NCBI GenBank assembly: GCA_963708075.1
Contig: OY970194.1
Coordinates: 1,824,001 to 1,888,000 of the forward strand
Length of the DNA stretch: 64,000 nt
Direction of reading: 5' to 3'
DNA from: Sedimentisphaerales bacterium
Lineage (GTDB): Bacteria; Planctomycetota; Phycisphaerae; Sedimentisphaerales; Anaerobacaceae
Part shown: positions 3,201 to 8,558 of the stretch, piece after piece
How positions within the stretch are numbered: position 1 is the first letter of the stretch
Layout: each line of letters begins with the position of its first letter
Translations under genes and position numbers: made by a program
The notes under the pieces: generated by a model
What the model was told of the DNA's origin: nothing
The model's database searches: none
What the model saw: only the letters and a program-made list of their open reading frames with translations

Positions 3201-3265
3201 CACCGCCCGTAGTGCCGGAGCGTTCCGGCATTATAGAGTTTGGAGGTCCTTGTTTGGAGAAAAGT

Positions 3266-4012
3266 ATGAGCATGTCTGTCAAGTCTTGTGGTATTGTCCT
3301 GGGGTTGGTTTCTGCGCTGCTTGTGCCCGCGGCAGCCAATGAAGCCGTATCCACGACCAATTTCATGGTCGATGGCTTCTACGGGAACATCGATGGCGAA
3401 ACGGGCAAAGGCGTCGGTGGTCTGGCGGCGGTTCCCCTCGGCGACAGTTACGGCCTGCAGGTCGATGGCCTGTACGGCGAGGTCAACCCGGACGATATCA
3501 AGGGGGCCGGCCTGCATACCTTCTGGCGCAAGTCCACGCTGGGACTTGTCGGGCTGACCGCCAGTCTGGCGGAATGGGAGAATAGCGAGGCCATCCGGGT
3601 CGGGGCAGAGGGCGAGTACTACTGGGATCAGTTTACATTCGGCGGCTTCGGGGGGCATCAGAGTGGCGACGTCGACGACTCATGGTACGGCGGGCTCGTA
3701 GGCCGCTTCTATCCGCTCGAGGATCTGATGTTGTCGGCGGCAGCCACGACAACGGACGATTTCGAAGTATACATCTTCGGGGTCGAATACCAGACCCCCG
3801 TTCCCGGCCTGTGCGTTTTCGCGACCGTGGCAGCGGGCGAAGATGATTACGACCACACCCTTTTCGGCGTGCAGTACTACTTCGGCGGCTCTCAGAAGAC
3901 GCTCATTCGGCGGCACCGCGAGGACAACGTCGCCGTCAATCTCTTTGGCAATCTGCTCGGGGCGGTGGCAGGCGTGAGCGAACCGCCGGTGCCGGAGCCA
4001 GAGCCGGACTGA
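3266..4012 (+). CDS. Secreted, probable outer-membrane beta-barrel protein
   Basis: Signal peptide (GIVLGLVSALLVPAAA), alternating amphipathic strands rich in G/Y/F, Pro-Glu tail; GGAG upstream of ATG 3266. Confidence 0.6.
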   Translation: MSMSVKSCGIVLGLVSALLVPAAANEAVSTTNFMVDGFYGNIDGETGKGVGGLAAVPLGDSYGLQVDGLYGEVNPDDIKGAGLHTFWRKSTLGLVGLTASLAEWENSEAIRVGAEGEYYWDQFTFGGFGGHQSGDVDDSWYGGLVGRFYPLEDLMLSAAATTTDDFEVYIFGVEYQTPVPGLCVFATVAAGEDDYDHTLFGVQYYFGGSQKTLIRRHREDNVAVNLFGNLLGAVAGVSEPPVPEPEPD

Positions 4013-4062: not shown

Positions 4063-4091
4063 TTGACAGCAGCCGAGAATTCTGGTAGAAA
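4063..4091 (+). promoter_or_regulatory. Candidate promoter of the ileS leader
   Basis: TTGACA-17 nt-TAGAAA. Confidence 0.45.
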
Positions 4092-4124
4092 CGTGATGAG
4101 ATGTACGTTCGTAGAAAGATTCAC

Positions 4125-4226
4125 ATGCGAACAGTGATGGGTAGACAATTCAGGGCGGTGATCGGGACCGAGCGGATCGCTATCGGTCTGATCATAATTA
4201 TTGGCGGGAGAAGAAAGCTGCCCTGA
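4125..4226 (+). CDS. Ile-rich leader peptide of an ileS attenuator
   Basis: MRTVMGRQFRAVIGTERIAIGLIIIIGGRRKLP*: 7 Ile, four consecutive (ATC ATA ATT ATT, 4191-4202). In-frame alternative starts at 4101 and 4137. Confidence 0.8.
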   Translation: MRTVMGRQFRAVIGTERIAIGLIIIIGGRRKLP

Positions 4227-4250
4227 GAATGCTTATATCGAGTTGACGTG

Positions 4251-4290
4251 AAGCCTTCCAGAGCAGCAGACTCCGGAAGGCTTTTTTATT
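4251..4290 (+). terminator. Intrinsic terminator of the attenuator
   Basis: AAGCCTTCC (4251-4259) pairs with GGAAGGCTT (4275-4283), followed by TTTTATT; the 5' arm can alternatively pair with 4217-4234. Confidence 0.85.
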
Positions 4291-4302: not shown

Positions 4303-4407
4303 ATGCAGACGCAGGCAGTGATCCGCAAGGCGACGCGGCGGGATCTGGATGCGATCGTCGCGCTGGCACAGGAGTTGATGGACTTCCACAAGGCCCTCGA
4401 CCTGTAG
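4303..4407 (+). pseudogene. N-terminal fragment of a GNAT acetyltransferase (34 aa)
   Basis: GGAG SD then MQTQAVIRKATRRDLDAIVALAQELMDFHKALDL*; typical GNAT N-terminus, then stop. Confidence 0.55.
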
Positions 4408-4436
4408 TTGACATAGGCGTCGTGCAGACTTATGAT
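4408..4436 (+). promoter_or_regulatory. Proximal sigma70 promoter of ileS
   Basis: TTGACA-17 nt-TATGAT, downstream of the attenuator. Confidence 0.65.
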
Positions 4437-4474: not shown

Positions 4475-7340
4475 ATGTCGGATGACCAGAAGCATAATTA
4501 TCGCGATACATTGAATCTGCCTCAGACGAGCTTTGCGATGAAGGCGAACCTGGTGCAGCGCGAGCCGCAGATGCGCAAGCGCTGGGCTGAGCAGAAGATT
4601 TACGCCCGGATTCGCGAGGCCCGCAAGGGCGCTCCGCTCTATATCCTGCACGACGGCCCGCCGTACGCCAACGGCGACATCCACATGGGCCACGTGATCA
4701 ACAAGGTCCTCAAGGATTTCGTGGTCAAGTACCGGACGATGATGGGCTTCGACGCGCCGTACATCCCCGGCTGGGACTGCCACGGGCTGCCCATCGAGTC
4801 GAAGGTGATGACCGATCTCGGCGAGAAGGCCAAATCCATGCCCAAGCAGGAAATCCGCCGGGACTGCATGAAGTACGCGGGCAAGTACGTGAAGATCCAG
4901 AGCCGGCAGTTCCAGGACCTCGGCGTGTTCGGAGACTTCGACAACCCGTACCTGACGTTCAAGCCGAGCTACGAGGCGGGAATCCTCGAAGTCTTCGCCG
5001 AGATGGTCGGCAAGGGTCTCGTCTATAAGCAGCTCAAGCCGATCCACTGGTGCATCGGGTGCGAGACGGCCCTGGCGGAGGCGGAACTGGAGTACAAGGA
5101 TGTTGCCTCGCCGAGCATCTTCGTCAATTTCCCCACCACGGATGAGACGACAAAGCGACTGGTCGAAATGGGCTTGGTGACAAGCGAGCAGGCGCAGCAG
5201 GCCCAGGTCTGTCTCATGATCTGGACGACGACGCCGTGGACGCTGGCGGCAAACCTGGCGGTCGCCGTGCACCCATTCCTCGATTACACGGCTATCAGCT
5301 ACCAGAAAGACGGCCGCAAATTCGTGTCCGTCGTCGCCACCGAGCGTGTCAATGCCGTGGTGCGGGCCGGCGGGCTAAAGGAAGGTGAGTATCACGTCGC
5401 CGAAGCGAAGGTACGTGGCAGCGATTTGGAGGGCTTGCGATACAAGCACCCATTCGTCGACTGGAATCCGACCGACAAAGACGCCTATATGGTGGTCCTG
5501 GCCGACTACGTCACTATCGAGGACGGCACCGGCCTCGTGCACACGGCGCCCGGGCACGGCCTGGAAGACTACATGTCGGGCCAGAAATATGGCTTGGCGG
5601 TGTATTCGCCGGTCATGGACGACGGCCGGTACGACGATACGGTACCGCCATGGCTTCGCGGCCGGTGCGTGCTCGACGTGGAAAAAGACGTGAACAACTA
5701 CCTGCGCGAGCACGGCTGGCTGTTCGCCCAGGGCGAGATCCAGCACAGCTATCCGCACTGCTGGCGAAGCCGGGACCCCGTGATCTTTCGCGCGACGGAG
5801 CAGTGGTTTGTCGGCGTGGACAAGCCCCTGCCCGATGTCGGCAAGACCCTTCGCCAGATGGCGATGGAGAGCGTCGAGCAAGTCCAGTGGATTCCCGCGT
5901 GGGGCCAGAAGCGAATCGCGGGCATGCTCGAATCGCGCCCGGACTGGTGCATCAGCCGCCAGCGAAGCTGGGGCCTGCCGATCCCGGTCTTTGTCATGCC
6001 GGATGGCCGGCCGCTGCTGACAAAGGAATCGGTCCTGGCCGTCGCCCGCCATACCGAGAAGCACGGCTCCGATAGCTGGTTCACGCACTCGCCTCGACAA
6101 ATCCTTGGCGACGATTTCCCGCTGCCGGCGGGCTTCAACCTCGACGAACTCCAAAAGGAAGAGAACATCTTCGATGTGTGGTTCGAGTCCGGCTGCAGTT
6201 GGTACAGCGTCTGCCAGCGACGCGAGCACTGGCCCGTGCCGGTGGATATGTACCTTGAAGGCTCGGACCAGCACCGCGGCTGGTTCCAGCTCTCCCTGCT
6301 GCCTGCACTCGGGGCCATCGAGAAGCCTCCGTTTAGGAGCGTCCTGACTCACGGCTTCACCGTCGATGAGAAGGGAATGAAGCAATCGAAATCGCTCGGC
6401 AATTACGTGAATGCGCAAGATGAGATCACCAAGTACGGCTCTGATATCCTGCGACTGTGGGTTCTCGAGCGTAAACTACCAGGAGGATGTTCGCTGCACG
6501 GACGAGTTGATCGGCAGGACGCAGGACGCGTATCGCAAAATTCGCAACACGCTGCGATACCTCTTCGGCAACATCGACGACTTCGATCCGGGCAAAGACG
6601 CCGTGCCCTACGAGCAGATGCTCGAGATCGACCAGTGGGCCATGCAGCGGCTTCAAAAGCTTATCGCCGAGGTCACCGAGGCGTACGACAGCTTCACGTT
6701 CCATCGCGTCTTCTCGCTGGCGTACAACTTCTGCTCCGTCGAGATGAGCAGCATCTACATGGACGTGCTGAAGGACCGCATGTATTGCGACCCGGCGGGC
6801 AGCCCCTCCCGCCGCAGCGGCCAAACGGCCATGTATCATGTCCTCAGCACAGTTGTGCGAATGTTCGCGCCGGTCCTCGTGCACACGGCGGAAGAGGCCT
6901 GGGAGGCGATGAAGGTCAAGCCCGAGGCCTGCGACAGCGTTCACCTGGCCCACATGCCCAAGGTCGATCCTTCCATCGACTACGCCGGTCAGGAACCGAA
7001 GTGGGAAAAGTTGATGGGCTTGCGTGATGAAGTCCTGCGGGTCCTCGAAGGCCTGCGCCGCGACAAGATCATCGCGAGCAATCAGGAGGCCTCCATCACG
7101 ATGCATTGCACGCCGGAAGACGCCGAGGCGTTGAAGCAGTTCGGCATCCCGCAATTCGCTGCCCTGTGCATCGTCAGCGAGGTCAAGCTCGAAGAAGGCG
7201 CTGTGCAAACGACCGTCACCGCCGGCAAGAGCCCCCATCCCAAGTGCCAGCGTTGCTGGAACTACTGGCCGAGCGTGGGTACGAGCGCCGAGCACCCCGA
7301 CATCTGCGACCGCTGCGCCAGCGTGGTTCGCGGGCGGTAG
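4475..7340 (+). CDS. ileS: Isoleucine--tRNA ligase (type 1); +1 frameshift near 6462, probably a sequencing error
   Basis: HDGPPYANG-HMGH, WTTTPWT, GTGLVH, DWCISRQR, EGSDQHRGWF, KQSKS, C-terminal CQRC...CDRC zinc finger. Removing one base near 6462 restores RLWVSSVNYQED and joins the two ORFs. Confidence 0.97.
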
Positions 7341-7381: not shown

Positions 7382-7762
7382 CTACACCATGAAGAGCCGA
7401 TCCACATGCTTTCTGGTCAGCCGGTAGTCGCTGAGCCTGGCGCAGCCTCTTGGGGCTGTGCTGACCATGCTCTTCGGGATAAGAAATACCTGGGAGCTGT
7501 TAAGGCAAACCTCCCCGTTGCTAGCACAGAGCTTTACGACCGCCAAGATGTGATATCGTTCAGGAAGATCCCTGGCACTGTACGAGTTCCCTGTCGTGGT
7601 CTTGACCTGGATTGCCTTGAACACTCCCTTGCGAACCGCGATGAGGTCATTACCCGAGTCTTTCAGTGGTGGGGCAGCCTGAACCCCGAATTGGAGCAGG
7701 CGAATCTGGACAAGTAATTCCCCAAGTGCACCTGTGTTCATTTTATCCGGAAGGTCATTCAT
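7382..7762 (-). CDS. Small PD-(D/E)XK-family nuclease
   Basis: GALGELLV...DSGNDLIA...IQVKT pattern (E...D...QxK); start uncertain (7762 or 7741). Confidence 0.65.
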   Translation of the reverse strand: MNDLPDKMNTGALGELLVQIRLLQFGVQAAPPLKDSGNDLIAVRKGVFKAIQVKTTTGNSYSARDLPERYHILAVVKLCASNGEVCLNSSQVFLIPKSMVSTAPRGCARLSDYRLTRKHVDRLFMV

Positions 7763-7815
7763 CTTTGCTGTTCCCGACATCTGACATAGTAAGAAAGACG
7801 TTAGGATGCTCATCT

Positions 7816-8400
7816 TCAAATCTGACTGGTCTGCGATGACGGTTGCTTCGCGCGATCCAGAAGAGATTGCACAAATTCAATGGTCCCTTCATAATCTGGG
7901 GAATTGGCGCCGACTGTCAAGCCATCAATCAGTGTCTGCACATCGTCGAGAGAAGGCGACAGGACATAACCGAGGACCTTCTCTTCCACCATGTTCAGGG
8001 TGTGATCGATGATTTTCTGGCTGACTCCAAGACTCCTAAGGAGACTCACAACAGGCTCTCGATTGCCACCCACAAACATGCGTTTCTCGAATATAACGAA
8101 GTGGCCTTTTCTTAGCTCCCAGTCACCTGGCTCTATCCAGAATCTCCAGCCGCAGAAACCTGGAATGTTGCTGAGGAAAGAGCCCAATGTATCCAGACCA
8201 TCATAATCGTCTCCTTCTGCAACTTGCACTTGTGCAGATGCATCCTGGCTGGCAAACAGCCCAAGGTGTACCATTTTCTCCGTGCCTTCATATGGGACCG
8301 CTTCATACCAAGGGTCGGCATGTATACCGCTCTCGCTCATACATCTGAAGAACTCCCTGCATTGCTCTAAGGTCAGTTCGTTTCTGATGTCCATCATCAT
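7816..8400 (-). CDS. Hypothetical protein (lower GC)
   Basis: Open frame with GGGAGG SD before ATG 8400; no recognised motif. Confidence 0.55.
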   Translation of the reverse strand: MMMDIRNELTLEQCREFFRCMSESGIHADPWYEAVPYEGTEKMVHLGLFASQDASAQVQVAEGDDYDGLDTLGSFLSNIPGFCGWRFWIEPGDWELRKGHFVIFEKRMFVGGNREPVVSLLRSLGVSQKIIDHTLNMVEEKVLGYVLSPSLDDVQTLIDGLTVGANSPDYEGTIEFVQSLLDRAKQPSSQTSQI

Positions 8401-8558
8401 GCCTCCCAACACAAACGCACTTCCGTAGGCAGTCTTCGCGCAATCACACTATATCGGACCGATTCCGTGGCGACTTGAGGATCGCCCGAGAGCTGTCAGA
8501 GAATTGGGCCGTAGAAAGGCTGCACCGCGAGGTCAATGAGGCGGCAGATTTGCAGATA

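Follow-up and report, generated by a model that had tools for sequence, protein, structure and literature searches.

The ileS gene in the window analyzed here—a 64,000-nucleotide stretch of a Sedimentisphaerales genome—is preceded by a conserved leader, which can with considerable confidence be read as an attenuator of transcription that senses Ile-tRNA and supplements a basal ileS transcript with an inducible one. As judged by the sequence, the mechanism is a familiar one, here encountered at a new gene, ileS, and in a new phylum, Planctomycetota, and it comes with a two-promoter layout and a sibling family of Ile-less copies. No leader-peptide attenuator of ileS or of Planctomycetota was found in the open-access literature; subscription surveys of attenuators could list ileS. 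The original prediction of ribosome-mediated attenuation of ileS is supported by the Ile run, the covariation of the helices, and the linkage to ileS. It has to be amended in two respects: most leaders do without a strong protector helix, and ileS has a predicted promoter of its own downstream of the terminator. The leader element is very probably functional.

The predicted leader promoter (4063–4091, plus strand) consists of a TTGACA hexamer, a 17-nt spacer, and the noncanonical −10 hexamer TAGAAA. The spacer holds a conserved GCCGA-like motif, possibly the site of a regulator. A TTGAC hexamer is found upstream of 89 of 95 leaders, most of which share the spacer motif and have a −10 element starting with TA; the last T of the −10 element is missing in most relatives. 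Sites of this type occur only three times in the whole genome. The leader-peptide ORF (4125–4226, plus strand) comprises 33 codons, seven of which encode Ile: ATC at 4161, 4176, and 4182, and the regulatory run ATC ATA ATT ATT at 4191–4202, which occupies codons −11 to −8 relative to the stop. The uORF with its seven Ile codons, four of them consecutive and with an ATA among them, can be read off the window as originally claimed. In the alignment, relatives start at the position equivalent to 4125; a second ATG in frame at 4101, upstream of 4125, would give a possible 41-codon, nearly leaderless form. Searches of the 41-aa form against Pfam and of the 33-aa form against NCBIfam yielded no match.

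The uORF is followed by, and partly overlaps with, a set of mutually exclusive helices. Their complementarity is as predicted: 4149–4159 pairs with 4217–4227 (protector), 4217–4234 with 4251–4267 (antiterminator), and 4251–4259 with 4275–4283 (terminator), after which a run of T extends to 4287. Region 2, the 5′ arm of the antiterminator (4217–4234, plus strand), spans the last codons of the uORF and contains its stop at 4224. Regions 3 and 4 (4251–4287, plus strand) make up the intrinsic terminator hairpin and its U tract, with 4251–4267 doubling as the 3′ arm of the antiterminator. The protector, or anti-antiterminator, is lineage-specific; its 5′ arm (4149–4159, plus strand) forms a duplex of −21.4 kcal/mol (z −4.8) at this locus. 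A simple terminator scan returned no terminator and missed the hairpin at 4251–4287, probably because of the irregular loop.

The unconstrained minimum free energy fold combines protector and terminator at −66.5 kcal/mol (z −2.74), and 2 of 200 shuffles are equally good. In constrained folding, the positions occupied by a ribosome were imposed on transcripts ending at 4268 or 4285. On the transcript to 4268, the antiterminator has a probability of 0.62–0.97 with a ribosome at 4194–4200, of 0.11 without a ribosome, and of 0.00 with a ribosome at the stop. With a ribosome at 4191, the protector wins on the same transcript and the antiterminator is at 0.00, rising to 1.00 if a second ribosome queues behind the first. 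When the transcript is extended to 4285, equilibrium folding favors the terminator in every ribosome setting (P 0.93–1.00). The original proposal that a stalled ribosome leaves 4217 onward free and that a ribosome at the stop covers this region agrees in silico with folding to 4268 for stalls at 4194–4200 and for the stop. Since the terminator wins at equilibrium and the protector wins upon stalling at 4191, the switch would have to be controlled kinetically, during transcription, or else depend on a second ribosome queuing behind the first. Co-transcriptional switching is usual for attenuators.

The conservation of the leader was judged on the regions upstream of 110 ileS genes of the order, 80 of them picked out of 150 listed places, with 0.2–2.5 kb fetched for each. 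A first heuristic scan required three Ile codons and was circular in this respect; 52 leaders were kept by eye on the basis of a stop-to-U-tract spacing of about 55–62 nt and a shared arm, and the other hits were discarded as chance. Two further checks were blind to Ile: a profile built on the stretch that follows the Ile run and an exact pattern without Ile codons, the latter run over all GTDB genomes. The core profile identifies a leader at 56 of the 110 ileS loci, namely all 52 earlier leaders and four more: L034, L032, and L100, whose last 16 codons hold three, two, and one Ile, respectively, and the decayed L036. L036 has lost the Ile run and the stop, keeps the helices, and lies directly before ileS; L100 is an Ile-poor leader 750 nt before ileS; both are possible intermediates. 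At the remaining 54 of the 110 loci, no leader is present within the 0.2–2.5 kb fetched, and in two genomes the leader lies further off, at 3.7–4.1 kb upstream of ileS. The exact pattern gives 55 matches in GTDB genomes, labeled Sedimentisphaerales (10), Phycisphaerae or Phycisphaerales (11), Planctomycetota (8), "uncultured Pirellulales" (25), and other (1). In these counts, which stem from related genomes and are thus nonindependent trials, 54 of the 55 matches carry at least three Ile within the last 16 codons; ileS lies within 1.5 kb of 51, and the contigs of the other four end within 450 nt. Among the strongest model matches, 42 of 48 are located less than 5 kb upstream of ileS on the same strand, with one more coming from a separate search.

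Alignment of the ileS upstream regions of relatives, which had been proposed as a check, shows the Ile run at a fixed distance from the stop and covariation in both switch helices. Codons −12 to −8 of 95 distinct leaders hold on average 4.07 Ile out of 5, and these are mostly ATT (237 of 387)—in contrast to the Ile codons of ileS and polA in the window, 72 of 85 of which are ATC. In the 52 aligned leaders, 96.6% of the terminator cells are paired, with 58 double changes versus 20.1 in shuffles, distributed over 7 of 13 pairs. The antiterminator is paired in 83.6% of its cells, compared with 31–44% in slid controls, and features 18 double changes versus 8.8 in shuffles. The 2:3 duplex has a mean energy of −19.7 kcal/mol and a z below −2 in 48 of 52 leaders, two mis-parsed arms (L069 and L072) being scored as misses, and the cognate 2:3 pair is stronger than the noncognate mean in 46 of 52. 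Where parsing was correct (50 leaders), the terminator arm begins 23–30 nt 3′ of the stop.

The protector, complementary and strong at the locus itself, is not a general component: its z is below −2 in 23 of 93 leaders—8 of 12 in the same genus and 15 of the remaining 81 (4 of 28 in other leaders of the same family, 0 of 5 and 1 of 6 in two other families, and 10 of 42 GTDB hits). A general three-helix model was dropped on these counts. The 5′ arm of the protector sits 30–40 nt upstream of the Ile run and does not overlap with the regulatory codons, so that a single stalled ribosome would not cover it. The 1:2 protector is absent from the definition of many described attenuators, and its lack marks a variant.

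The ileS gene (isoleucine–tRNA ligase; 4475–7340, plus strand) matches TIGR00392 with 706.7 bits, above the cutoff, has Pfam matches on both halves, and is the sole ileS-level match in the 7.5-Mb genome. One extra base near 6462–6464 causes a frameshift compared with 19 orthologues of the same genus. Because a related contig is without one base at 6462 and a further gene of the assembly is frameshifted at about G000:C1:5997200, this is most likely an assembly error.

Between terminator and ileS lies what remains of a GNAT acetyltransferase gene, 34 codons long (4303–4407, plus strand). This remnant gives a GNAT family match and is identical at 25 of 33 positions to the 159-aa GNAT of locus L006 (E 3e-15); in relatives, the gene is whole. 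It is followed by a predicted proximal ileS promoter of the sigma70 type, TTGACA-17-TATGAT (4408–4436, plus strand; 11/12 match). Leader and ileS are linked on the same strand, and a predicted proximal promoter with a match of at least 9/12 intervenes at 48 of the 56 loci with a leader; such a promoter is present at 51 of the 54 loci without one, versus 11.8% of shuffles. The site at 4408–4436 has the appearance of an original ileS promoter upstream of which the leader cassette was inserted later. As it lies downstream of the terminator, the attenuator at this locus probably gates only an extra transcript on top of basal ileS expression. At L006 and L009, where the stop of the GNAT gene overlaps with the start of ileS, a proximal promoter was not found; there, ileS would be wholly dependent on the attenuator.

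We infer transcription starts, stalling, termination, and induction at the leader from these features, and the proposed course of events is as follows. Transcription would start near 4098. When Ile-tRNA is ample, the ribosome would reach the stop at 4224 and cover region 2, allowing for the formation of the 3:4 terminator, and the RNA would end near 4287. When Ile-tRNA is scarce—upon Ile starvation or inhibition of IleRS—the ribosome would stall at 4191–4202 with its leading edge short of 4217. Region 2 would then be free to form the 2:3 antiterminator, and the polymerase would continue across the GNAT remnant into ileS. A protector, if there is one, would keep an untranslated leader switched off, and the predicted proximal promoter would provide constitutive ileS expression regardless of the attenuator.

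The 7.5-Mb genome contains exactly one more good model match (L112; G000:C1:5999987–6000108, minus strand). This paralogue features the same module with a 47-codon uORF devoid of an amino-acid run, is conserved in the genus, and is placed between a dapE-like gene and a methyltransferase–GNAT–PhzF-like cassette that ends in a dapF-like gene. Similar copies are distributed across the order and the class, where they precede GNATs, SAM methyltransferases, and EamA and ABC transporters, as judged from 29 scanned ORFs out of 79 listed. Among the 31 paralogue leaders with a recognizable uORF—30 located away from ileS, and L100—28 keep the 2:3 helix and two are Ile-rich, with at least three Ile. Their mean Ile content at codons −12 to −8 is 0.65/5 versus 4.07/5 in the ileS-linked leaders. 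Since the paralogues keep the 2:3 helix but lose the Ile run, the run appears to be tied to ileS, and the Ile-less copies constitute the best control for its putative service to this gene. For the paralogues themselves, we infer that general ribosome stalling would be the signal. A sample of 150 genomes of the phylum contains seven outside the order with weak model matches. In two of these, module and uORF lie directly before tRNA arrays with at least 10 (L210) and at least 14 (L212) tRNA genes within 1.5 kb, and in two more, L209 and L213, the module precedes one tRNA gene and an SPFH gene; others resemble ordinary terminators. A generic scan of the genome for other codon-run attenuators gave 17 candidates; two were inspected, and neither lies before a fitting gene. 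The Ile-less leaders L196 and L197 contain many Phe, Tyr, Trp, and Cys codons, and the gene after them has no Pfam match at E 1e-8.

A second type of Ile leader is found in another family of the Phycisphaerae. Of 30 ileS genes examined in other families of the Phycisphaerae, one was without upstream DNA; the core profile detects nothing convincing in front of these genes, and one of the regions, L232, bears an Ile leader. L232 is not matched by the profile, the leaders of its family being distinct in sequence. Within this family, 9 of 28 ileS regions feature an Ile leader (L232, L247–L249, L251, L257, L258, L266, and L268); two further matches of the script were discarded as chance. These leaders consist of a short uORF with Ile codons 4–16 codons before the stop and a terminator about 30 nt later, and the 2:3 duplex has a z below −2 in seven of the nine. 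They may be either distant homologues or the result of convergence. Two families of the order itself, f2 and f3, carry a longer ileS that is only about 30% identical to the one in the window, and no Ile leader with a terminator is present upstream of ileS at the seven loci examined in them.

The Ile-less copies suggest another reading of the leader, in which it is, like its paralogues, a general sensor of stalling caused by antibiotics or starvation; the GNAT and methyltransferase cargo would be its target, ileS a bystander, and the copy in the window, next to a GNAT stub, vestigial. The occurrence of the same module before GNAT and methyltransferase cassettes elsewhere fits this reading, as do the cargo genes that often lie between leader and ileS and the proximal promoter that precedes ileS at 48 of 56 leader loci. 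However, the cargo varies whereas ileS is constant, many leaders end 60–250 nt before ileS with no cargo gene between, the Ile run is all but restricted to the copies linked to ileS, and in a second family Ile leaders lie immediately upstream of ileS. A general stall sensor is thus improbable at this locus.

The hydrophobic stretch of the leader peptide, the basic residues that follow, its conserved K-L-P end, and the predicted promoter of its own could point instead to a small transcript with a constitutive terminator, the Ile-rich peptide being the product and ileS being transcribed from the proximal promoter only. The length of the peptide—about 16 to 45 codons—and its N terminus are highly variable, its K-L-P end is accounted for by the base pairing of region 2, Leu or Val seldom replace Ile at −8 to −11, and the antiterminator covaries; all of this speaks against a functional peptide and makes it very unlikely. 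Still less weight falls on a switch without a ribosome sensor, be it a protein-binding one, such as autoregulation by IleRS via an RNA mimic, or a diverged T-box. Precedents exist in the T-box control of ileS in Actinobacteria reported in PMC1262725 and in synthetases that can autoregulate, such as E. coli thrS, mentioned in PMC2965389. At the leader, the features defining T-boxes, Stem I with a specifier and the T-box bulge, are absent, and a search of the genome for RF00230 found none (the positive control was detected in 5 of 14). Between positions 3500 and 4800, no Rfam family matches beyond two chance-level hits. Moreover, conservation between the helices of the 52 aligned leaders is limited to the in-frame Ile codons and the stop.

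Attenuators of synthetase genes are known from other phyla; the pheST attenuator of E. coli carries the pheM leader. The survey in PMC1262725 describes a pheST attenuator and predicts leader-peptide attenuators for Streptomyces leuS and trpS. With these systems, the element shares a leader peptide of cognate codons and a terminator/antiterminator pair upstream of a synthetase gene. It differs from them, as they are presented there, in its gene and phylum, in the second promoter and variable cargo between terminator and synthetase, and in an anti-antiterminator that is not conserved and does not overlap with the regulatory codons. In Bacillus, His leader peptides precede hisS paralogues (PMC2965389), which likewise have a leader peptide in place of a T-box, the sensing system having been switched at one locus. 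That case concerns His and Firmicutes instead of Ile, and the main text of PMC2965389 contains neither ileS nor planctomycetes. The ileS T-boxes (RF00230; PMC1262725) act on the same gene and respond to the same signal, the charging state of tRNA-Ile, but those of Firmicutes and Actinobacteria bind uncharged tRNA directly, and none was found in this genome. The Ile-less paralogues, in which the 2:3/3:4 module stands before GNAT, methyltransferase, transporter, and SPFH genes and tRNA arrays, resemble two other systems: lmo0919, an amino-acid-nonspecific, antibiotic-responsive uORF attenuator (as cited in PMC5314783), and the long tRNA L-array of Anabaena, which is stress-induced (PMC8421152). 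Unlike the lmo0919-type attenuators, the ileS copy carries a run of cognate codons; the main text of PMC8421152 is without the string "attenuat," and attenuator control of such arrays is not shown there.

Taken together, these likenesses allow for a wider reading, which is rated just short of an even chance: Planctomycetota would possess a mobile, as yet undescribed attenuator chassis, of which the ileS leader is one tuned member. The shared terminator module, with the uORF stop inside the antiterminator, would act as a general translation-stress sensor before acetyltransferase/methyltransferase cassettes and long tRNA arrays, and it would have been made Ile-specific, possibly twice in Phycisphaerae, by gaining the Ile run after landing upstream of the existing ileS promoter. 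If so, the family would represent a natural series of amino-acid-specific attenuators arising from antibiotic-type stall sensors, and attenuation would be added to the controls of bacterial tRNA arrays. The about 95 natural variants of fixed geometry and the sibling copies without a codon run open the origin of attenuator specificity to leader-codon swaps. The two-promoter layout, in turn, keeps basal and induced expression apart. A further prediction is that mupirocin and other IleRS inhibitors would induce ileS in bacteria that carry the leader.

The neighborhood of leader and ileS in the window comprises three further ORFs. Upstream of the leader promoter, 3212–4012 (plus strand) encodes a predicted exported protein of 266 aa that has no Pfam match. 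Downstream, two ORFs on the minus strand converge on ileS: in the references scanned, the one at 7816–8412 has no match, and the one at 7382–7819 weakly matches a PD-(D/E)XK endonuclease (E 0.011).
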